From Polynucleobacter campilacus (lineage in GTDB: Bacteria; Pseudomonadota; Gammaproteobacteria; Burkholderiales; Burkholderiaceae), in assembly GCF_002206625.1 (NCBI RefSeq), contig NZ_NGUP01000003.1:176968-208967 (forward strand): a stretch of 32,000 bases of DNA, given 5' to 3'. The position numbers were made by a program, and so were the translations under genes. A model generated the notes under the pieces. The model saw only the letters and a program-made list of their open reading frames with translations, was not told the DNA's origin and did no database searches. Of the stretch, positions 2,740-25,766 are shown one piece after another; the stretch's first letter is position 1; every line of letters starts with the position of its first letter.

Positions 2740-4443
2740 TCACCAAACCTGCTTTTTGCCATCAATCCAAGTTTCCTTGACTTTGATATTGGCAATTTTT
2801 TCTGGGCTTGTCTTGCGAGGGTTTTTATCCAAGATCACTAGGTCAGCTTGCTTGCCTACTTCAAGGCTTCCAATCTTATCGTCCGACATGAGTTGATAAG
2901 CTGCATTAATGGTGACTGCACGAATAGCATCATCTATAGATACACGCTCATTAGGCCCCAAGACTTCGCGGGGCGGCTTTTGCCATAGACGATCAACGCC
3001 TTCAGAAATGTAACGCAAAGGGCTTACTGGCGAGATCGGAGAATCGCTGTGATAGGTAAAGCGGGCACCTTCCTTTTTAAATGAAGCGCCCGGAGCAATT
3101 CTACTGGCACGCTCGGGGCCAACGATGTGATTATGAAAGGCTTCCCCCCAATAGTTCACGTGACCCACAGTAAATCCAGGAACAACGCCTAATTGCACAG
3201 CTTTTTTCACTTGCTCAGGTGTATTAATAGTGAAATGCTCAATTCGTAAACGGCGAGTTTCAGGCTTTGCATTACCTGCTAAAAGTTTTGCGTAGTTATT
3301 CAGAGTTTGTTCAACAGCACGATCGCCATTGGCATGAATTGATAATTGCCAACCCTGATCAAAGAATGGCTTGATCAAACCGAAGAGATCCTCATCTTTG
3401 TAATCAAGATCGCCACGTCTTTTGCTGCCAATTGGGTAAGTGTATGGCTGGTTTAAGGCGGCTGTTAATCCCTGAGTAGAGCCATCAGATACAAATTTGA
3501 TGCCCACAAAACGTAGGCGGTCGTTTCCATCATTTGGCTTAATAGTATTAAAGCCTTTGGGAATTGCCGGGCCATATAAGTAGCCCCTGACGCGAAGTGG
3601 CCAGTCCTTGCTAGCGCTAGCACCTTGGAGTAACTTCACTTCATTATCTAAGCCCAACATGGCCCCTATAGTAATTTCAGTGGTCGTGGTGACGCCTTTT
3701 GAAGCAATCATCTTCCCAGTCTTTTGAACCGCCTTGAGTAAATCCGCATCCGAAGGTGGCGGCATTTTTTCTAAAAATGGTAAGTAAGAAGCGCCTTCAA
3801 TCAAAACCCCAGTGAGCTTACCTTGAGCATTTTTCTGAAATACCCCACCACCAGCTGGATTGGGAGTGCTATCAGTGACACCAGCAATTTCATAAGCCTT
3901 ATGATTGACATACGCAATATGACCAGATTGATTTAGAACGAAAATAGGTACTTCAGTGCTGACCTTATCTAAAACATCAGCAGTTAATTCCGCCATGAAT
4001 GGATTAGTGCGGGATGGATCTACGCCAAAGCCCATCAACCATTGCCCTTTAGGTAAAGTCTTTAAATGCGCCTTTAATTTGTTGCTAAGCGTTGCAACTG
4101 TGTCGTACTTGGTGGTGAAGTTAGAGAGATCTAACCAAATATATTCACCAACTGCCGTCAAGATAATATGGACGTGAGGATCAATCAGGCCTGGCATGAC
4201 TGTTTTACCTTGCAGATCGACAATCTTGGTAGAGCTCGTTTGCCATCCTTTTGTCACGTCGGATTTAGTGCCTGCAGCAACAATTTTCCCATCCTTTACA
4301 GCAAGTGCTTCCACCTCTTCATTTTTGGCGTTTACGGTAACAATAGGCCCGCCATAAAAAATCGTATCTGCATTATTTTGGGCAAAAGCCATAGACGCAT
4401 GGATAGCCAATACTGCAATAAGAATATTTGATGAAAATTTCAT
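2740..4443 (-). CDS. secreted metal-dependent amidohydrolase (YtcJ-like, Amidohydro_3)
   Basis: 567 aa with Sec signal MKFSSNILIAVLAIHASMAFA. Metal-ligand motifs DPHVHI, SIHANGD and YHSDSP are present. Confidence 0.8.
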   Translation of the reverse strand: MKFSSNILIAVLAIHASMAFAQNNADTIFYGGPIVTVNAKNEEVEALAVKDGKIVAAGTKSDVTKGWQTSSTKIVDLQGKTVMPGLIDPHVHIILTAVGEYIWLDLSNFTTKYDTVATLSNKLKAHLKTLPKGQWLMGFGVDPSRTNPFMAELTADVLDKVSTEVPIFVLNQSGHIAYVNHKAYEIAGVTDSTPNPAGGGVFQKNAQGKLTGVLIEGASYLPFLEKMPPPSDADLLKAVQKTGKMIASKGVTTTTEITIGAMLGLDNEVKLLQGASASKDWPLRVRGYLYGPAIPKGFNTIKPNDGNDRLRFVGIKFVSDGSTQGLTAALNQPYTYPIGSKRRGDLDYKDEDLFGLIKPFFDQGWQLSIHANGDRAVEQTLNNYAKLLAGNAKPETRRLRIEHFTINTPEQVKKAVQLGVVPGFTVGHVNYWGEAFHNHIVGPERASRIAPGASFKKEGARFTYHSDSPISPVSPLRYISEGVDRLWQKPPREVLGPNERVSIDDAIRAVTINAAYQLMSDDKIGSLEVGKQADLVILDKNPRKTSPEKIANIKVKETWIDGKKQVW

Positions 4444-8103: not shown

Positions 8104-9252
8104 ATGAAAACTATTTTCGGGAAGTTAGCTTTTGCAATATCTGGAGTGGCAATAGCAAGCACAGCGTATTGCGGCACTTACGTATACATTTCAAACATTG
8201 AAGATGCCGATATTGCAGCTTATGAGCTAACGACTGGGTCAAGTCCACACTTAAATTTAGTTGGGCGCTTTCCGGCTGGAAAATTCGCTATGCCTATGGC
8301 TGTAACACCCGATGGTAAAAATTTATATGCCTCGGTCCGCTCTAAGCCCTTTTCTTTATATATGTATCAAATAGATCAGTCTAATGGACAGCTAAAATGG
8401 ACTGGTGCAATACCATTGCCCGATAGCATGGTTGCTGTATCTACAGATAAAACTGGTAAATGGTTATTAGCCACCTCTTTTGGCGGCCATAACAACAGCG
8501 TGAACCAAATACAAGCCAATGGCTATGTCAATCCTATCCCAGCGGAAGCATTTCCAAGTGGCGGCAAAAATCCACATGCAATCATATTTGACCAGTCCAA
8601 TAAGTTTGTCTATGTGCCCCAGCTAGGAACAGATGAAATTAAAATCCATACTTTTAATGCCTCTCAAGCCAAGCCTCTCTCTGAAACATCAACTTCAGTA
8701 GCCCTCCAAAAACAACAAGGGCCAAGACATATTGTTATTTCGGACGACAATAAATTTGCCTATGTCATTACAGAGATGACTGGTGAGGTGGTAGTTTTCT
8801 CTCGAGATATCAAATCAGGGGCATTGACTCAAATTCAGGCTGTATCTAGCCTGCCAAGTGATAGTAAATTAGTGCCCGGCAGACCAAGACCTCCAACTGG
8901 CTCACCAGAGGCAACTGCATTTGATGACTCTAATATGATTTTCTGTGCTGAAATTAAATTAACACCCAACGGTAAATTTCTCTACACATCCGAAAGAACT
9001 AAGAGCACATTAAGCGGCTTTGAAGTTAACCCTCAAACAGGCAAAGTAAAGTATCTGTTTACGATACCTACAGAAGAAATGCCGAGAGGATTTAATGTTG
9101 ATCCTAGCGGTCAATTTTTAGTTGCCTCCGGACAAAAGTCTGACAAGGTATCTCTCTACTCCATCAATCAAGCTAATGGTGAATTAAGTCTGATTGAAAG
9201 AGTTGCTGGCGGCAAAGGAGCTAACTGGGTCACTTTCGTTAAAACGAAGTGA
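8104..9252 (+). CDS. lactonase, 7-bladed beta-propeller family (YbhE/Pgl-like), secreted
   Basis: 382 aa with a signal peptide. Contains NPHAIIFDQSNKFVYVPQLGTDEIKIHTF and repeated propeller-blade motifs. The Shine-Dalgarno sequence is AGGGAGA. Confidence 0.8.
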   Translation: MKTIFGKLAFAISGVAIASTAYCGTYVYISNIEDADIAAYELTTGSSPHLNLVGRFPAGKFAMPMAVTPDGKNLYASVRSKPFSLYMYQIDQSNGQLKWTGAIPLPDSMVAVSTDKTGKWLLATSFGGHNNSVNQIQANGYVNPIPAEAFPSGGKNPHAIIFDQSNKFVYVPQLGTDEIKIHTFNASQAKPLSETSTSVALQKQQGPRHIVISDDNKFAYVITEMTGEVVVFSRDIKSGALTQIQAVSSLPSDSKLVPGRPRPPTGSPEATAFDDSNMIFCAEIKLTPNGKFLYTSERTKSTLSGFEVNPQTGKVKYLFTIPTEEMPRGFNVDPSGQFLVASGQKSDKVSLYSINQANGELSLIERVAGGKGANWVTFVKTK

Positions 9253-9296: not shown

Positions 9297-10394
9297 ATTT
9301 ATTTTTTAGCGTACTTAAAAACTGCTTAATTGCTTTATTCTGAACTTCATTCTCATTCGGCGTTACTCCTGCCCCTGAAAGATGCCCCATAGGTGCAGCC
9401 TCATTAATCGCAACATATTTCGCCTGAGGTATATATTTTACTGATTCCTTGGCATCAGATTCTGGATTAAGCAAATCCCCAGTTCCTGCCAGAATCAATG
9501 TCTTTGCTTTGATTGATTTCAATGCAGCAATCGTATCGCCATTAAAACCCTTTGTTTGCCCAATATCATGGCGATCATAAGCGCGAGATTGCCAAATCCA
9601 ATCATTCGCATCCATACGCTTCCAAGAAGCATCCTGTAGCTTATTGAGAAAGTTAATTTCTGCCTCAGGACTATTGAATTGTTGATTTTGGTAGGAAGGT
9701 GTTCTAACAATCACTCCACTTAACCACCCTGCCCATAGGCGCATTCCTTTTTCAACGGGCTTGTCATATTTACCGCCCTGGTAAGCTGAGTCAGTCATGA
9801 TGCTTTGCTAAGCATCTCAAGCACCCCAGAAGTCCATGCATGGGTTTTAGCCAAAGGAATGATGGGTACGATTGACTGCATCGCATTGGGATAAGAAACA
9901 GCCCACTGCAAAGCTTGCATACCGCCCATGGAGGCGCCCACCACTGTCACCAGCTTGGTGATCCCAAAATGCTCCGTCACTAATCGATATTGACTGTTCA
10001 CCATATCTCGGATATTGAACTCTGGAAAACTCACATTGGCCTGTGTTTGGCTATTTGATGGAGAGCTTGTCAAGCCATTGCCTATCGCATCCGTACAAAT
10101 CACAAAATACTTATCTGTATCGAGAGCCCTGCCAGGACCTATTAGGTAATCAATACGGTGATGATTTCCGCCAATCGCAGTCACCATCAAAATGGCATTG
10201 GATTTATCTGCGTTAAGAACACCCTGCGTGGTGAAGGAAATTTTGAAGTTTTCAATAGTGGCCCCATTTTCAAGGACAAGATTGCCCTCTGCATAAGTTT
10301 GATGAGGTGGATCCGTATCTTTGTGGGCGTAAGAGTTTGCCGAGAAAATGGTTAGCGTCAAACACACAACAAGAAAATGTAATTTTGTTTTCAT
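9295..10394 (-). pseudogene. alpha/beta hydrolase (homoserine-acetyltransferase-like esterase fold) split by a frameshift into 199-aa and 167-aa ORFs
   Basis: ORF 9795..10394 has the signal peptide and the nucleophile elbow GASMGG. ORF 9295..9798 has the C-terminal Asp/His part (TGDLLNP...PMGHLS). The two overlap by ATGA at 9795-9798. One extra base there would read through as ...SKAIMTDSAY... Confidence 0.6.
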
Positions 10395-19632: not shown

Positions 19633-19980
19633 ATGATTGGCAAAATTCGCAGGAAGTTAATTTCGCTTGCGCCAACACCATTCCTAAAAGCGGTGGATGT
19701 GGTCTGCCCTATCTGCGACCGCCCTATACCTGATTCCCAAAAAGATGCCCATCACCTCATACCGAAGTCCAAAGGCGGGAAAACTACCGAGTACCTACAC
19801 CGGATTTGTCATCGTCAGATACACGCCCTCTTTACTGAAACTGAACTAGCCGTGCAATTTAATACTGCTACAGCTCTTCAAGAACATCCTGAAATGCAGC
19901 GATTTATTCATTGGGTTAAATCAAAGCCTAATCACTTTTATGAAAAATCACGTAAAAGTTCTCGCTTAAAAGAAATTTAA
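19633..19980 (+). CDS. HNH endonuclease family protein
   Basis: 115 aa. CPICDRPIP...DAHHLIPKSKGG...HRICHRQIH carries a zinc-finger-like Cys pair plus the HNH core. Confidence 0.7.
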   Translation: MIGKIRRKLISLAPTPFLKAVDVVCPICDRPIPDSQKDAHHLIPKSKGGKTTEYLHRICHRQIHALFTETELAVQFNTATALQEHPEMQRFIHWVKSKPNHFYEKSRKSSRLKEI

Positions 19981-20044: not shown

Positions 20045-20121
20045 TGGTGGGCCCACCAGGACTTGAACCTGGGACCAAAGGATTATGAGTCCTCTGCTCT
20101 AACCAACTGAGCTATAGGCCC
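20045..20121 (-). tRNA. tRNA with CAU anticodon (Met, or more likely lysidine-type Ile2)
   Basis: The reverse complement is GGGCCTATAGCTCAGTTGGTTAGAGCAGAGGACTCATAATCCTTTGGTCCCAGGTTCAAGTCCTGGTGGGCCCACCA (77 nt). It has a 7-bp acceptor stem, an encoded CCA and anticodon loop CT-CAT-AA. The anticodon arm, variable loop and T arm resemble E. coli ileX more than metT, as I remember them. Confidence 0.9.
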
Positions 20122-20123
20122 GT
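20083..20123. repeat. 41-bp direct repeat, copy 1 (att-like, inside the intact tRNA)
   Basis: TTATGAGTCCTCTGCTCTAACCAACTGAGCTATAGGCCCGT is identical to 25726..25766. It covers tRNA nt 1-39 plus 2 nt upstream. Confidence 0.95.
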
Positions 20124-21526: not shown

Positions 21527-21967
21527 CTACTTATCAAACACTTTACGAACATTGATGCTTGCGTTATTGATTTGCGTATCAAGTTCTCCAGCCTCAACAG
21601 CTTGCTTGACAAGCTCTAACGCTTTAATCAACGCTGTTGCACTTTCCACTTCAATACTTCCTTTGCCTTTAACAAGCTCTATAGTTTGTGTGCCATATCT
21701 AATGCTCACGCACATCTTGCCTTGTTCATTCTTAAACCACCACTCGCGAATACGTTTGGGAACTTCTACTTGTTTGCGTAAGCCTGTTTCTCTATCTACT
21801 ATGCTTTTATATTTCTTGACAACAAACTGCGTGCCTTCAATTTGACTTTTGGCTAACTGAATTTGCTCCCATAGTTTGTTTGATAGTTTATTTCTGCGTA
21901 AAACGATTTGTGGCAGATGTGCTGGTTTTTTTGCTGTGCTAAGTTTCAATCCATCCAATGTGCTCAT
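21527..21967 (-). CDS. hypothetical protein (146 aa)
   Basis: MSTLDGLKLSTAKKPAHLPQIVLRRNKLSNKLWEQIQLAK...KRIREWWFKNEQGKMCVSIRYG...LELVKQAVEAGELD. A GGAG Shine-Dalgarno sequence lies 9 nt upstream. It resembles conserved hypotheticals I have seen in proteobacterial mobile elements, but I cannot name the family. Confidence 0.6.
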   Translation of the reverse strand: MSTLDGLKLSTAKKPAHLPQIVLRRNKLSNKLWEQIQLAKSQIEGTQFVVKKYKSIVDRETGLRKQVEVPKRIREWWFKNEQGKMCVSIRYGTQTIELVKGKGSIEVESATALIKALELVKQAVEAGELDTQINNASINVRKVFDK

Positions 21968-22005
21968 TACTCATTCTCCAAGTTGATTTATAGGTATGGT
22001 TTATC

Positions 22006-22044
22006 AAAAAGCAGACTTTTTTTGTTATAAAAAACCCTGCGTTT
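22006..22044. repeat. imperfect A/T-flanked hairpin; its 3' arm (22029..22044) is the exact reverse complement of 23689..23704
   Basis: AAAAAGCAGACTTTTTTT-GTT-ATAAAAAACCCTGCGTTT. On the minus strand it reads as a terminator-like hairpin plus a T-run, about 40 nt upstream of the 146-aa ORF. Confidence 0.6.
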
Positions 22045-22333
22045 GCCTAAACCCTATATATCTACTGTAGTTGCGGTGTATGGCTTTATGCGACCTCTTT
22101 TTGCCACCAAGTTCCCATTCAAACCAAATAAAAGGATGGAAAAAATTACGGATTATTTGGTCTTGTATAAATAAAATACAAATGAGACAAAGGTTGGCAC
22201 GCCAAATGTATGTGCTGTTAAATCCGTTCTGATGTGTGACGGTAGACGATTGGGTTGCTCATTACTCGCTGTATCGCACTACCTAGCTGTAGTTATCCAC
22301 TATGTGCTAGATGCCTTAAATGCCACACCACTG

Positions 22334-22344
22334 TGTAGAAGCGT
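22334..22344 (+). repeat. TGTAGAAGCGT motif, copy 1
   Basis: An 11-mer identical to 22584..22594. The core TGTAGAAGC is shared with copy 3. Confidence 0.8.
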
Positions 22345-22570
22345 TTGCGATGCTGTAATGGTTAGTAGCGTAGCGATATGCGAATAAAGTGAGTGGGATG
22401 CCACAATTAAACCCACAAACACTCCACAAAGCTACTGATATAGGCTGTGGAAGTGTTGCGTTAGACGAGCACATAAAAGGGGATAGCAAAACCTACCTTC
22501 CTTGTTAAATCAAGTTGTGTGTATATCAGTTATGAAAACCTAAGTAAAAGTATTTACGAGATTACTTAAA

Positions 22571-22598
22571 AGCCACGCTTACTTGTAGAAGCGTGGCT
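22571..22598. repeat. 10-bp-stem hairpin containing motif copy 2 (CTTGTAGAAGCGT at 22582..22594)
   Basis: AGCCACGCTT-ACTTGTAG-AAGCGTGGCT. Confidence 0.8.
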
Positions 22599-22741
22599 TA
22601 TGCTTCCTAGTAAAAGATATCTAAAAGCAATTTCAAATAATCAATGAATAAGAAATTAAAAAAGAAAGTGCTGAGTAAAAGCGATAGCTTTTATGAAAGC
22701 ACAAGTTAGCGTAGCTAACTTCTAAACAAATACATCAATTA

Positions 22742-22752
22742 GCTTCTACAAG
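22742..22752 (-). repeat. motif copy 3, inverted (GCTTCTACAAG = reverse complement of CTTGTAGAAGC)
   Basis: A perfect 11-bp inverted repeat with 22582..22592, enclosing 149 bp. Confidence 0.8.
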
Positions 22753-23038
22753 CAATTTAATCTAACTATCTAATAGCTACACAGCTGAGAATTAAACACA
22801 CAGCACATAGACGCTATACGCAAGTCTATGCATTTCTGTAGTCAATGTCCCACAAACCCAATAAATAGCTATATGTAAGGAAATAAGCAAAACATTACAT
22901 TTGATATTTAAAACAGCTTATCCCATTGATTATTGGAAGGAATTTAATTTGATACAGAGTTGGCACAAAGAGGTCGCAGAAAGAAACAAAAGAAAACACA
23001 ATTTAGCTATAGCAAAACTTTGGTTAGGAAAGAAAACT

Positions 23039-23614
23039 ATGGCTAAGCAAGCAAAAGTGTTAAACAACGCAGAAATTCGTAAAGTGCTTGATTATTGCGC
23101 TACACGAAAACACGCATCACGCAACAGAGCATTAGTAATGATGATGTTTAATACGGGAATGCGTGTCAGTGAAGTGGCAAGCCTACGAATACGCGATGTT
23201 ATGGATACTGATAGCAGTATAAAGAACGAAATACGCTTATTGGCAGAAAACACAAAGACGAATGAGGCAAGAACAGTATTTGTAAATGAGAAGTTGCGAA
23301 GAGAGCTACAGCAATATGCCAAACTCCTTGTAAATACCAATCCTAACTGTAAGTTCTTTTACAGTCAAAAGCGAGATAGTGATGGATTTACAGCAAATAC
23401 ACTGACACAGCACTTCCACTATCTTTATAAGCGTGTGGGTTTGGATGGAGCAAGCTCACACTCATCTCGTCGCACTTTCATTACCACTTTAGCCAACAAA
23501 GGAATTGGTGTGCGTGTGATTATGGGTTTAAGTGGTCACAAAGCACTCAGTAGCGTTCAATGCTACATAGACTGTAATAGCGAATTGATGCGTAATGCTG
23601 TAGAGATGGTTTAA
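23039..23614 (+). CDS. small tyrosine recombinase, catalytic domain only (FimB/FimE/MrpI-sized, 191 aa)
   Basis: ATG 23039 has an AGGAAAG Shine-Dalgarno sequence; the track's TTG 22901 extension looks non-coding. Catalytic signature: Arg in NTGMRVSEV, HSSRRTF (HxxR) and GHKALSSVQCYID (His...Tyr). Confidence 0.8.
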   Translation: MAKQAKVLNNAEIRKVLDYCATRKHASRNRALVMMMFNTGMRVSEVASLRIRDVMDTDSSIKNEIRLLAENTKTNEARTVFVNEKLRRELQQYAKLLVNTNPNCKFFYSQKRDSDGFTANTLTQHFHYLYKRVGLDGASSHSSRRTFITTLANKGIGVRVIMGLSGHKALSSVQCYIDCNSELMRNAVEMV

Positions 23615-23688
23615 CTTGGTCAGCTTGGTTGGGATGGGATGGTTGGTTTTTATGGCCTTGTAAGCCAAGTAATTATAAGGGTTTAAGG

Positions 23689-23730
23689 AAACGCAGGGTT
23701 TTTTACAAATAAACAAAAAACCTGCGTTTT
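23689..23730. terminator. bidirectional terminator-like inverted repeat between convergent genes
   Basis: AAACGCAGG(G)TTTTTT-ACAAATAAAC-AAAAAACCTGCGTTTT: 9+6 bp of pairing with one bulged G. Confidence 0.6.
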
Positions 23731-24350: not shown

Positions 24351-25565
24351 TTATGCTAACTTCTCAGCACTTAGCATTGGGGTTATCTTGCTGTAGTGCT
24401 TTTCAATCATCAAAACACTTGTTCCCATTTGGCGCGCCAATGTGTGTATATCTACTCCTTTTGCCAATGCTCTTGTAGCGTAGGTATGGCGTAGGCTATA
24501 CAGCGTTCTTCGCTGTCCTCCACTGTCATACATCAACTTGCTACGCTTCATCAAATTACGAAAGATGTTTTCCATATTGCTAATTTGCTCACCACTCGTC
24601 AGCCTAAATATCAGCTTGTCTAACTTGGCATCTATCAAATCATCCAATGTTGCGTAAGGTAGCTCGTGCCAAAGTATTATTTTCTCTAATACCGCAATCA
24701 CTTCATTCTTAGCAATCAAATAGCGTGGTCCAGTTTTTCCACTCACCCATATGCGTAAGTATTTCTTCTCACCAATCCAATGCCACTGCAAGTGCTTCCA
24801 TCTCAATGGCAATGCTTCTGTGCCGTGTCTAATTCCAGTATTCACGAGAAACTCTATATACGCACCACATAAAATTCGCATCAACCTTGTTCTTGCTGTG
24901 TATGAGCTTTCAATCCAACTTGGCACAAATGCTATCACCTCACTTAGCTCCTCGTCAGTAAATGCAGGACGAGCACGACTTCTTTCACCGTTGCTATCTA
25001 ACATTGGCACAACACGAGTGCTACTGATAACACCAAGCTCTTTTGCTAAATTGATAACACGGATATAGGCAGACGAGTGATTACGCTTAGTGCTTTGCAT
25101 AGGCACCTTGCCCATCATTGCTATACGCCAACTCTCAAAGTCTCTTACCAACTCTGTAGTAATTTTTTCTATCGTGTAATTACCAAAAAATGGAATAAGA
25201 TATTTGTTGATGGCAAATATATAGTCTCTGTATGTTCTCTTACCAACCCCATTAGCCATTGCTTGCGACATATTCGCTAACTCTTCTGTAGCAATTTGCT
25301 TAAATGTTTTTGTCACTGGCGTTAGTCCAGCTTCAGTTTTTATTTGGACTGTTTGATAAATGTATTCAGCATTTGTTATTGCTTCATCTTTATCCTCTGT
25401 GTAAGTTGATTGCGAATGCCACTTGCCATTGGCTAACTTAAATCGCACTTGCCAATGCTTGGTGCTGGAACGCTTATACAGCGTGGCTTTGCCAGCCACT
25501 GCTTTTATTTTTTTATCAGCGTCAGCGTCAACTTGTGCTTTATAGAATTGTTGTAGTAGTGACAT
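24351..25565 (-). CDS. tyrosine-type site-specific integrase (404 aa)
   Basis: The N-terminal part ATLYKRSSTKHWQVRFKLANGKW is typical of an integrase arm-binding region. The catalytic domain has NTGIRHGTEAL (Arg), LYSLRHTYATRAL (HxxR) and MIEKHYSK (Tyr). Confidence 0.9.
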   Translation of the reverse strand: MSLLQQFYKAQVDADADKKIKAVAGKATLYKRSSTKHWQVRFKLANGKWHSQSTYTEDKDEAITNAEYIYQTVQIKTEAGLTPVTKTFKQIATEELANMSQAMANGVGKRTYRDYIFAINKYLIPFFGNYTIEKITTELVRDFESWRIAMMGKVPMQSTKRNHSSAYIRVINLAKELGVISSTRVVPMLDSNGERSRARPAFTDEELSEVIAFVPSWIESSYTARTRLMRILCGAYIEFLVNTGIRHGTEALPLRWKHLQWHWIGEKKYLRIWVSGKTGPRYLIAKNEVIAVLEKIILWHELPYATLDDLIDAKLDKLIFRLTSGEQISNMENIFRNLMKRSKLMYDSGGQRRTLYSLRHTYATRALAKGVDIHTLARQMGTSVLMIEKHYSKITPMLSAEKLA

Positions 25566-25725: not shown

Positions 25726-25766
25726 TTATGAGTCCTCTGCTCTAACCAACTGAGCTATAGGCCCGT
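25726..25766. repeat. 41-bp direct repeat, copy 2 (orphan tRNA 5' half)
   Basis: Identical to 20083..20123. It lies 11 nt downstream of the rpoD stop, and no tRNA 3' half follows it. Confidence 0.95.

Follow-up and report, generated by a model that had tools for sequence, protein, structure and literature searches.

The window analyzed here, a stretch of 32,000 nucleotides from Polynucleobacter campilacus, contains between two divergently transcribed genes a gap of about 1 kb that is rich in short repeats. The locus raises the question of whether this gap is a DNA switch operated by the small tyrosine recombinase encoded next to it or a gene in its own right. The sequence-only reading preferred a promoter segment inverted by the recombinase and listed a large structured non-coding RNA, or an array of iterons or arm-type sites, among the alternatives. 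It drew attention to the core motif TGTAGAAGC, whose three copies were found where it had placed them, at 22334–22342 (plus strand, copy 1), 22584–22592 (plus strand, copy 2) and 22742–22750 (minus strand, copy 3). Our analyses of the locus and its relatives led to a different answer. It is very probable that the gap harbors a structured RNA gene of a family shared with a Polynucleobacter-1-type sister, and with good confidence the whole of 22176–22720 (plus strand) is best explained as the gene for a candidate highly structured non-coding RNA of approximately 550 nt.

The gap is bordered on the left by the gene for a 146-aa DUF6641 protein (21527–21967, minus strand; Pfam PF20346, 7.9e-12), transcribed away from the RNA. 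The protein matched phrog_31551 (1.6e-22), tblastn against phage records gave no match and so no link to GOS11034 or PSSM2_218, and its AlphaFold model (pLDDT 66) found no significant Foldseek match (best E-value 0.38). No PDB sequence match was obtained for this protein or for the 195-aa protein encoded convergently to the recombinase, and DUF6641 was not mentioned in the literature searched.

On the right lies the recombinase gene (22949–23614, plus strand), the product of which comprises little more than the catalytic domain (Pfam PF00589, 2.7e-28; phrog_216, 2.4e-42). It had been read as a 191-aa protein starting at 23039. The catalytic domain does begin near ATG 23039, but the start is probably TTG 22949, giving 221 aa, since the phrog_216 alignment runs from residue 16, ATG occupies the equivalent position in two related loci (L004 and L006), and a Shine–Dalgarno-like GGAAGGA is located at 22936–22942. 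Codon periodicity over the first 30 recombinase codons is weak, so this start is probable rather than certain; it shortens the gap to about 981 bp. The statement that the gap lacks any ORF of 60 aa or more held, except for the upstream-extended ORF of the recombinase itself (22901–23614). The region directly upstream of the gene (22771–22948, plus strand) is conserved and likely serves as its promoter and 5′ UTR, and a consensus RNA fold was found there on neither strand.

Both genes are part of a tRNA-integrating genomic island of 5.6 kb, inserted at tRNA-Met. Its boundaries are marked by a perfect 41-bp direct repeat, one copy of which (20083–20123) makes up the 5′ half of tRNA-Met(CAT), whose gene is intact (20045–20121, minus strand). 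The second copy (25726–25766), a partial tRNA-Met 5′ half, is situated just 3′ of the rpoD stop codon and adjoins the gene for a 404-aa integrase (24351–25565, minus strand). The same island occupies the same site in P. paneuropaeus, and related islands, carried by Polynucleobacter and related freshwater Betaproteobacteria, adjoin tRNA-Met, tRNA-Phe, tRNA-Arg and tRNA-Lys genes. Comparison of the island proteins with PADLOC revealed no defence match.

The order of the island components is constant: the divergent DUF6641 gene, the RNA, 0–4 kb of variable cargo and the small tyrosine recombinase. The DUF6641 gene was located 109–261 nt upstream of the RNA in 42 of the 44 listed loci with enough upstream sequence, and the recombinase followed downstream on the strand of the RNA in 20 of the 21 listed loci with enough downstream sequence. 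The cargo, consisting in the relatives of unrelated genes, always resided between the RNA and the recombinase, immediately beside the 3′ hairpins of the RNA, and its breakpoints had no single fixed position. In P. campilacus the slot (22721–22770) is empty; its right edge is formed by CATCAAT-N4 followed by the palindrome GCTTCTACAAGC (22741–22752), which is motif copy 3. Among nine first-cargo proteins, Pfam recognized a GNAT domain and a zinc ribbon and nothing else. In three islands (L001–L003) an ORF of 113–139 aa replaced the RNA core, with the upstream element and the 3′ hairpins on either side unchanged in kind. These islands without the RNA core retained the same DUF6641 and recombinase genes, which argues against an obligate partnership of the RNA with either of them.

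At least approximately 75 related loci, 74–94% identical, were found in Polynucleobacter genomes and freshwater metagenomes; the metagenome loci were gathered by the exact 18-mer at 22456–22473, so that part of the local invariance was imposed by the search pattern. Part of the RNA region is more conserved than the recombinase gene, as in L008, where the RNA was 81% identical and the recombinase protein 69%. RNAalifold, applied to 38 non-redundant copies, predicted 106 pairs, of which 30 had compensatory changes. Hence, the comparison of homologous regions that the sequence-only reading had proposed did reveal covariation, and its alternative of a large structured RNA gained strong support. 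Alignment cells at the predicted pairs were paired in 98.6% of cases versus 27.6–46.1% with the 3′ partners slid, and cells changed on both sides numbered 221 versus 6–14. On four of the five measures none of 500 shuffles matched the observed value, and the count of further pair types was not above that of the shuffles. An extra helix, at 22319–22346, covaried as well, whereas an all-against-all column scan for further helices or pseudoknots added nothing convincing.

The same data indicated the strand. The plus-strand structure contained 364 G–U against 11 A–C combinations, which assigns the RNA to the plus strand, and the alignment fold energy was −89.6 for the plus and −71.3 for the minus strand. 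The predicted fold bears further hallmarks of RNA, such as a G[CU][GA]A (GNRA) tetraloop and an optional hairpin inserted in some members. Not every part was equally informative: the helices of the block 22454–22514 are invariant within the family, where compensatory changes cannot show, and in the long-range closing helix changes were one-sided only, from G–U to A–U.

The predicted RNA may be followed from its 5′ end. The conserved upstream element TTATTTGGT-N6-TAAATA (22153–22175, plus strand) would represent the promoter or, alternatively, the start of the RNA. The element was also kept in L001 and L003, where the protein gene replaces the core, and 5′ of published Polynucleobacter-1 examples. 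No sigma-70 consensus match was detected on the plus strand upstream of the RNA, so the element is a putative promoter. A sigma-54 reading of TTGGCACGCC was considered and rejected, as its −12 element is not conserved and GGCAC constitutes a helix strand. The core domain of approximately 350 nt (22176–22524, plus strand) is predicted to be closed by the helix 22176–22185/22515–22524 and to contain about 14 further helices. Among its features are the helix 22319–22346, in which motif copy 1 forms one strand, a hairpin at 22368–22381 with the GNRA loop GCGA (22373–22376), and the near-invariant block 22454–22524.

Downstream of the core, a GC-rich hairpin with the stem GCCACGCT/AGCGTGGC (22572–22597, plus strand) is flanked by conserved CUnAGUAAAAG-type motifs, at 22540–22550 before and 22604–22614 after it, and conserved sequence goes on past the hairpin. 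Most of motif copy 2 lies in the variable loop of this hairpin. The pair 22574/22595 was C–G in 21 sequences and U–G in 17, and the sister RNA type has a stem of entirely different sequence that still pairs. An A-rich linker (22615–22667, plus strand), variable in length and sequence, is followed by two 3′ hairpins, 22668–22702 and 22704–22720 (together 22668–22720, plus strand); the second, with a GNA loop, is the palindrome that had been noted at 22703–22721 and was found there. At single pairs of the 3′ hairpins both sides were changed in up to 17 sequences. The hairpins were kept even in islands without the RNA core, and nhmmer matches to L001–L003 covered these hairpins only. They probably mark the 3′ end of the RNA or a terminator. 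As the terminal hairpins have no clear U-tract and the plus strand no promoter match, we infer both transcript ends.

The closest known relative was found in Polynucleobacter-1 (RF01718), an orphan RNA motif published in 2010 by Weinberg et al. (PMC2864571), who scored it as probably cis-regulatory, with the hairpin equivalent to ours predicted by their pipeline to be a terminator, and who described a GOS11034-type gene next to it. In the literature searched, only this 2010 paper mentions the motif. When the window and 46 related loci were scanned with Rfam 15, at gathering and E-value thresholds, nothing was matched within the RNA except RF01718 in L016. RF01718 (gathering cut-off 37 bits) gave no match at E ≤ 10 in the 581 nt searched around the window RNA, and 20 related loci were likewise without a match at E ≤ 1. 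In L016, however, it scored 84.7 bits directly 5′ of a stretch homologous to the 3′ half of the window RNA (nhmmer, 1.7e-11 for the 3′ domain). The flanks of three published Polynucleobacter-1 sequences likewise matched the 3′ domain (3.6e-10 to 2.4e-13). Because the 3′ half is homologous to the flanks of RF01718, it appears that the 141-nt motif constitutes the 5′ part of a similarly sized sister RNA, i.e., a sister type with Polynucleobacter-1 as its 5′ subdomain and a 3′ domain common to both. The window RNA itself is, judging by these alignments, most likely a much larger, divergent relative of Polynucleobacter-1, with approximately 550 nt against the 141 nt of the Rfam model.

Several observations connect the two RNA types. 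They share organisms, habitat and the conserved upstream element, and helices covary between them. The L016 motif adjoins a DUF6641 homologue (43% identical, 6e-35) and lies upstream of a homologous small recombinase. The 3′ domain, the GC hairpin and a CUAGYRAAAG motif follow the published examples, including that in P. asymbioticus NC_009379.1. By eye, the order of elements in the 5′ subdomain looks similar: a first hairpin, of 5 bp with a loop of 11 nt, is separated by 7 nt from a second one, and a linker of 10 nt then leads to a hairpin of 4 bp with a loop of 8 nt and to a three-way junction with CACUAYC. A covariance model of the 5′ domain gave no significant match in 15 distant loci; its top match in L016, weak at 2.2 bits (E = 0.67), fell exactly on the RF01718 site (1824–1980).

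RNAs as large and complex as this one are rare in bacteria. To our knowledge, those that have been studied are almost all ribozymes, ribonucleoprotein scaffolds or unusual assemblies. The window RNA resembles GOLLD and ROOL (also OLE, raiA and HEARO) in extending over several hundred nucleotides, in its many covarying helices and in its residence on mobile DNA. None of them was matched by it in sequence or structure in Rfam 15, and it differs from them in its fixed position between DUF6641 and a cargo slot followed by a tyrosine recombinase. We know of no function assigned to GOLLD or ROOL.

How such an RNA might act can be judged from its setting. Tentatively, we favor a stand-alone, trans-acting mode, which we regard as possible rather than probable. 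The RNA would be transcribed rightwards from the conserved element at 22153–22175, would end at the 3′ hairpins, and may act as an independent fold, perhaps together with proteins of the host or the island, in regulating or maintaining the island. Its position is the one taken in other islands by a gene for a small protein.

A less likely reading makes the RNA a long cis-acting leader, similar to an attenuator or riboswitch, the fold of which decides between a stop at 22572–22597 and 22704–22720 and read-through into the cargo or the recombinase. The arrangement agrees with this: among the loci listed the RNA is always upstream of the recombinase on the same strand, and in 15 of the 20 listed cargo-bearing loci the first cargo ORF begins 15–93 nt past the last hairpin on the plus strand. 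The score and terminator prediction for Polynucleobacter-1 (PMC2864571) point the same way. In the other five of these 20 loci, however, the cargo gene next to the RNA runs in the opposite direction, as much as 4 kb of genes in mixed orientation can intervene before the recombinase, and several cargo regions possess their own conserved promoter-like motif CTGATAGACTA. Conserved sequence continues beyond the first hairpin, neither hairpin has a good U-tract, and an ordinary protein gene takes the same slot in L001–L003. A sensor of approximately 350 nt would, moreover, exceed any known riboswitch aptamer, as we know of none that large.

An analogy with ColE1 RNA II and cer–Xer would turn the RNA into a pre-primer, and the region into the origin of an excised circular island whose multimers are resolved by the Xer-like recombinase. 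We consider this improbable. The likeness lies in the size, as ColE1 RNA II is similar in length to the approximately 550 nt of the window RNA, in the island having no recognisable replication protein, in the AT-rich stretch after the RNA (GC content of 0.318 over 22501–23000) and in the adjoining small Xer-like recombinase. No sign of circular replication was noticed, however, since terminal overlaps occurred in no contig among the 115 loci. The RNA had no homologue among 72,556 plasmids and 50,697 phage records, in which blastn returned only a low-complexity Borreliella match; the conserved 18-mer was also absent from IMG/VR viral contigs. The A-rich stretch in which priming would take place is variable in sequence and length, and a conserved antisense unit comparable to RNA I was not seen. 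The support is wholly by analogy.

Covariation alone cannot tell RNA from single-stranded DNA, and the folded molecule might accordingly be a single-strand origin, a transfer origin or an attC-like recombinase substrate. The C(GNA)G-type loop of the terminal hairpin, very stable in DNA too, and the insertion of cargo directly beside the 3′ hairpins would be in keeping with this. It is nevertheless a very improbable reading: the 364 G–U (or G–T) wobbles, the GNRA tetraloop and the large junction-rich domain are typical of RNA, the island encodes neither a relaxase nor a rolling-circle Rep protein, and in the three multi-gene cargo regions (L059, L069 and L095) no attC-like repeats or recurring hairpin sites were present between the cargo ORFs.

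We hold it to be highly doubtful that the RNA or its 3′ hairpins are a partner of the recombinase, as a scaffold or guide for choosing or assembling the sites of cargo capture. The synteny of the RNA with the recombinase, observed in 20 of 21 loci, the cargo between them and the near-catalytic-only recombinase are compatible with such a partnership. Against it speak the islands that lack the RNA core and yet keep the recombinase, the absence of repeats bounding the cargo and the lack of complementarity between the RNA and the att sites or junctions; matches of the RNA to the att repeats, the palindromic elements and the recombinase upstream region were at most 8–10 nt and not conserved. The literature searched contained nothing relevant linking a tyrosine recombinase to a large RNA. 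If true, the partnership would amount to an RNA-assisted, integron-like gene-capture platform. Integron platforms resemble the island in placing a tyrosine recombinase beside a hotspot of unrelated genes and a hairpin-forming sequence; here, however, the integron-integrase model TIGR02249 scored below its cut-off (42.6 bits versus 265), attC-like repeats are missing and the cargo breakpoints are unfixed.

The invertible switch proposed at the outset has to be considered very unlikely indeed. According to it, the target of the recombinase is the 149-bp segment enclosed by the 11-bp repeats (22593–22741), or a larger one, and its inversion would flip the promoter of the leftward operon ending in an outer-membrane protein gene, as in the FimB/FimE–fimS and MrpI switches. 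The likeness to those systems, a small tyrosine recombinase beside a non-coding region with inverted repeats, is real, and so are the repeats. The arms of the inverted repeat CTTGTAGAAGC/GCTTCTACAAG match perfectly over 11 bp and can be lengthened to 14 nt at 93% identity, and copies 1 and 2 share the 11 nt of TGTAGAAGCGT inside a 44-nt direct repeat of 73% identity (22301–22344/22551–22594). The hairpin reported around copy 2 is present, with 11-bp arms (22570–22599), as is CTGTAGT at 22065, 22287 and 22836; the latter occurs nine times in the window, always on the plus strand, against 2.4 expected. The claim that the repeats exceed chance was true of the core motif, whose three copies are the only ones in the 32-kb window (0.25 expected; reached in none of 100 shuffles). 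It failed for the 11-bp inverted repeat alone, since 22 of 100 shuffles yielded at least two one-mismatch matches.

Two longer inverted repeats had been overlooked, of 23 nt (22084–22106/22961–22983) and 39 nt (22017–22055/23678–23716), and these too might be counted in favor of a switch, but the right arm of the 23-nt repeat is inside the recombinase coding sequence. Long-range pairing of 22084–22106 with 22961–22983 was rejected as a candidate, because no more than GGCA..GGTCG is retained in the relatives and the right arm codes for protein. The 39-nt pair belongs to two palindromic elements, an imperfect one on the left, AAAAGCAGAC-TTTTTTT...AAAAAACCCTGCGTTT (22005–22044), and AAACGCAGGGTTTTTT-loop-AAAAAACCTGCGTTT on the right (23686–23729). 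The right element lies between the convergent recombinase and 195-aa genes and is terminator-like.

The relatives speak against inversion. The 11-bp repeat is missing from most of them, its arms being variable or absent in L004–L006 and in the 38-sequence alignment, and no inverted relative was found. Full-length copies were collinear with the profile and showed no internal inversion, and among the loci listed order and strand were constant in the 30 that include DUF6641, the 35 that include the recombinase-proximal region and the 42 that include the recombinase. The 149-bp segment belongs to the covarying fold and contains no sigma-70-like site on either strand. An 18-bp element upstream of the recombinase (22837–22854) does occur in both orientations, being reversed in a second allele class; since it differs jointly with about 60 nt around it, this looks like allele replacement, not switching. 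The assignment of the recombinase to the FimB/FimE/MrpI invertases was not upheld: NF007370 (PRK09870) scored 40 bits and NF007371 19.8, where the cut-offs are 221 and 222, respectively, and the best-matching models were Xer-type, likewise below their cut-offs. The outer-membrane protein gene, taken for the end of a surface-structure operon, proved to be island cargo and not part of a fimbrial operon.

No motif copy of the sequence-only reading was kept as such in the relatives, which leaves the iteron or arm-site array unsupported. The copies are by-products of the architecture of the RNA and the island: a helix strand, a hairpin loop and stem, and a palindrome bordering the cargo slot. That the gap is decayed coding sequence or a set of small-protein genes has a negligible chance of being true, as its ORFs of 40–57 codons are outweighed by an absence of codon periodicity (variability by codon phase of 0.125/0.137/0.128, whereas the recombinase control was clearly periodic at 0.122/0.077/0.304), by pairwise indels of which 346 of 397 (87%) are not a multiple of three and break the frame, and by the strongest conservation coinciding with paired columns in which the changes are compensatory.

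Altogether, these results offer a well-supported candidate for an RNA of approximately 550 nt undetected by Rfam 15, together with evidence that the 16-year-old Polynucleobacter-1 motif represents just the 5′ portion of an RNA of comparable size. They also illustrate that DNA next to a recombinase gene, when rich in repeats and devoid of ORFs, can mimic a phase-variation switch. The precise setting of the RNA, with a tRNA island, DUF6641, a cargo hotspot and a short recombinase, makes its function testable in cultivable Polynucleobacter.

The related loci (L numbers) were collected from genomes, scanned with the recombinase (35 loci), and from metagenomes, scanned with a conserved 18-mer, 22456-22473 (at least 80 loci); the 18-mer is invariant because it served as the search pattern. 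Among the matches listed, the stretch 22151-22730 was 74-94% identical in about 75 loci. Its conservation can exceed that of the recombinase gene, as in L008, where the RNA region was 81% and the recombinase protein 69% identical. The order and orientation were constant: a divergent DUF6641 gene, the RNA stretch, 0-4 kb of unrelated cargo, a conserved stretch of ~200 nt and the recombinase. The DUF6641 gene was located 109-261 nt away in 42 of the 44 loci with sufficient upstream sequence, and the recombinase was co-stranded with the RNA in 20 of the 21 with sufficient downstream sequence. The RNA occupies a fixed position in a mobile island with a cargo hotspot directly 3' of it; the cargo slot of the window was empty.

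For 38 non-redundant copies (mean pairwise identity 77%), RNAalifold predicted 106 pairs, 30 of them with compensatory changes. Standard pairs filled 98.6% of cells compared with 27.6-46.1% when the 3' partners were slid by 1-3 columns, and 221 cells were changed on both sides versus 6-14 in the slid controls. Across 500 column shuffles, four of the five measures never reached the observed value; the fifth, the count of further pair types, did not exceed the shuffles. An additional helix at 22319-22346 covaried once locally realigned. The alignment energy (-89.6 for the plus and -71.3 for the minus strand) and the excess of G-U over A-C pairs in the plus-strand structure (364 vs 11), G-U being a mismatch on the opposite strand, point to the plus strand as the folded one. 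One pair of the GC hairpin was C-G in 21 sequences and U-G in 17. The window sequence alone folded better than shuffles on both strands (z-scores -3.6 and -4.6), which agrees with a structure and does not decide the strand. Variability by codon phase was flat in the RNA region (0.125/0.137/0.128; recombinase control 0.122/0.077/0.304) and 346 of its 397 pairwise indels were not multiples of three, so the region is not coding. The comparative sequence evidence thus shows a conserved, covarying plus-strand fold, and the sequence-only reading was right in naming a large structured ncRNA as an alternative.

A conserved upstream element, TTATTTGGT-N6-TAAATA (22153-22175), which is kept in L001-L003, precedes the closing helix of the core domain (22176-22185 with 22515-22524), in which only one-sided G-U to A-U changes were seen. 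The 5' subdomain (22196-22356) consists of three hairpins and then a three-way junction, and is followed by a hairpin with a G[CU][GA]A (GNRA) tetraloop (22368-22381), a site at 22385/22386 where some members carry an extra hairpin, and two more covarying helices (22389-22451). The predicted helices inside the near-invariant block (22454-22524) never vary in this family, so no covariation is seen there. Downstream lie the GC hairpin (22572-22597), a variable A-rich linker (22615-22667) and two covarying 3' hairpins (22668-22702 and 22704-22720); a CUnAGUAAAAG-type motif occurs three times, at 22540, 22604 and 22671. Many metagenome contigs start or stop within a few dozen bases of the invariant block (L039, L047, L049, L070, L080, L101 and L114), which fits assemblies failing where co-occurring island variants share identical sequence.

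Rfam 15 gave no match to the window's RNA, even at E <= 10 with only 581 nt searched. The link to a known family came from L016, an Oxalobacteraceae locus with a 56% identical recombinase and a DUF6641 homologue as upstream neighbour, in which a match to Polynucleobacter-1 (RF01718, 84.7 bits) lies directly 5' of the stretch profile-aligned to the 3' half of the window RNA. The flanks of published examples were taken from the original Stockholm file (Weinberg et al. 2010, PMC2864571, supplementary file 101). The flanks 3' of the 141-nt motif in P. asymbioticus NC_009379.1 and in two GOS (freshwater metagenome) scaffolds contain UGUUGCGUU...GCACGUAAAAGGAGAUAGCGAAACC...CCUU, the GC hairpin and CUAGCGAAAG, and match the profile of the window RNA type with E values of 3.6e-10 to 2.4e-13; the upstream flank of the published examples has UUAUUAGGU...CUAAAUAAC in common with it. 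Helices covaried in the joint alignment of both types, e.g., UGGG/CCCA, AAAG/CUUU and CAAG/CUUG, and the GC hairpin stem was GCCACGCU in one and ACUGAGCC in the other, each with matching partners. From these alignments we conclude that Polynucleobacter-1 probably corresponds to the 5' subdomain of a similarly sized sister RNA, and that the window carries a second type with a 5' subdomain that escapes the Rfam model. The two 5' subdomains look alike in element order and sizes, and a covariance model of the window-type 5' domain had its best L016 match exactly on the Polynucleobacter-1 site, with only 2.2 bits (E = 0.67). Polynucleobacter-1 was rated a likely RNA, probably cis-regulatory, with no assigned function (Weinberg et al. 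2010, PMC2864571); our literature search found no paper later than 2010 mentioning it.

The sequence-only reading had preferred a FimB/MrpI-type switch inverting the 149 bp (22593-22741) between 11-bp inverted repeats. All the repeats it listed were found in place: the core TGTAGAAGC occurs three times in 32 kb, always in the gap (expected 0.25; none of 100 shuffles reached three), the 11-bp inverted repeat is exact, and the hairpin (22570-22599) and the palindrome (22703-22721) are real. The switch itself found no support and is very probably wrong. The 11-bp repeat is confined to particular lineages, the 149 bp between its arms form part of the covarying fold and contain no sigma-70-like site, none of the relatives examined carries an inverted segment, and the recombinase scores far below the FimB/FimE family cut-offs. 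Nor are the motifs conserved as such: copy 1 (22334-22342), which lies in the realigned helix, changes jointly with its pairing partner, the loop of copy 2 (22584-22592) differs in nearly every lineage, and copy 3 (22742-22750, minus strand) is a small palindrome, GCTTCTACAAGC, which, along with a CTCAAATC-like motif, delimits the cargo slot on its right side in relatives. CTGTAGT, also listed, is present in nine copies in the window, all on the plus strand (expected 2.4), six of them in the 5.6-kb island (21471, 22065, 22287, 22836, 24391 and 25154) and the others at 1587, 30949 and 31243; those at 22065 (upstream of the RNA/DUF6641 pair) and 22836 (upstream of the recombinase) fall in sequence conserved among relatives.

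The recombinase, which shares 100% identity with a protein of P. campilacus, the species of origin of the window, was given as 191 aa from 23039. It probably starts at TTG 22949 and has 221 aa, since L004 and L006 have ATG at this position, 6 nt separate it from a conserved upstream GGAAGGA, and alignment to the integrase profile of PHROG begins at residue 16; weak codon periodicity in the first 30 codons keeps this start short of certain. Upstream of the gene lies an 18-bp element, TGTAGTCAATGTCCCACA (22837-22854), which islands of a second allele class carry reverse-complemented (loci listed for the element: L004, L007, L010, L062, L068, L074, L087 and L103). L008 and L074 carry it in opposite orientations with recombinase genes 95.8% identical, and this looks like allele exchange rather than a clean inversion because ~60 nt around it differ too.

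Two larger inverted repeats, of 23 and 39 nt, had been overlooked. An imperfect palindrome, AAA(C)GCAGGGTTTTTT-loop-AAAAAACCTGCGTTT, present twice (22005-22044 and 23686-23729), gives rise to the 39-nt repeat. Its copies bracket the unit of RNA, cargo slot and recombinase; its pairing is kept in L003-L006, and the right-hand copy resembles a bidirectional terminator. The arms of the 23-nt repeat (22084-22106 and 22961-22983) are 91% complementary; the right one lies within the N-terminal coding extension of the recombinase (W-H-K-E-V-A), the left one can be read as a 10-codon mini-ORF on the minus strand (MGTWWQKEVA), and relatives retain GGCA..GGTCG alone. The repeat could be left over from duplication of a gene start, or could serve as a binding site for a protein.

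The integrated island spans 5.64 kb between perfect 41-bp direct repeats, 20083-20123, the 5' half of an intact tRNA-Met(CAT) gene (20045-20121, minus), and 25726-25766, directly after the rpoD stop. From the rpoD side it carries a 404-aa integrase, a 195-aa protein without assigned function, the small tyrosine recombinase (opposite strand), the ORF-free gap, the DUF6641 gene, two small ORFs and an outer-membrane beta-barrel gene; P. paneuropaeus carries the same island at this site. The duplicated tRNA part is the 5' half (tRNA positions 1-39 plus two upstream bases), not the usual 3' end, and the intact tRNA-Met sits at the end distant from the integrase, which means that the promoter-proximal half of the tRNA has to come from the island. 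Just outside, adjoining the tRNA-Met gene, lies an HNH nuclease-like gene (19633-19980; 70.5 bits with the HlpB-type model NF058586, below the cut-off of 130).

The cargo regions showed further features. Cargo genes that are otherwise unrelated share an upstream CTGATAGACTA motif, 45-60 nt past the last hairpin of the RNA (L038, L039, L055, L059, L069, L079, L080, L105 and L111); it could be either a promoter for the cargo or a signature of the junction. Inside the multi-gene cargo region of L095, a segment of the recombinase-upstream region, TCATAAATAG-ATATGTAAGAAAACACGC (other strand), occurs twice at a spacing of 1.4 kb (8549-8576 and 9961-9988), a hint that cargo modules can bring or copy this element. 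L004 (Polynucleobacter sp. AP-Latsch-80-C2) has a group I intron match (RF00028, 57 bits vs the cut-off of 50) at 3524-3739, minus strand, ~1.4 kb from the RNA locus.

Where the RNA core would lie, L001-L003 instead have a 113-139-aa ORF and ~300 nt of non-coding sequence (L001 3507-4262, L003 4329-5093, in a near-identical island backbone), and the upstream element and both 3' hairpins are kept. On this evidence the core acts like an interchangeable gene that brings its own start and stop signals. The replacement ORF (MRNDEQVANDW...) weakly matches a terminase small subunit PHROG (E = 0.002). The RNA would be transcribed from the upstream element and would end at the 3' hairpins. Because the core is exchangeable while DUF6641 and the recombinase stay unchanged, we tentatively favour a stand-alone RNA that may work, alone or with host factors, in island regulation or maintenance. 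A cis-acting leader controlling read-through seems unlikely: the constant co-orientation and the first cargo ORF on the plus strand in 15 of 20 cases speak for it, but some cargo lies on the opposite strand and putative separate cargo promoters occur. By analogy, an RNA II-like replication primer could be envisaged, with very little probability, and a single-stranded DNA structure, a poor fit to the wobble pairs and the GNRA loop, seems very unlikely too. The locus adds a far larger, previously unrecognised variant to a known but uncharacterised family of RNAs, and its genetic context is clear.
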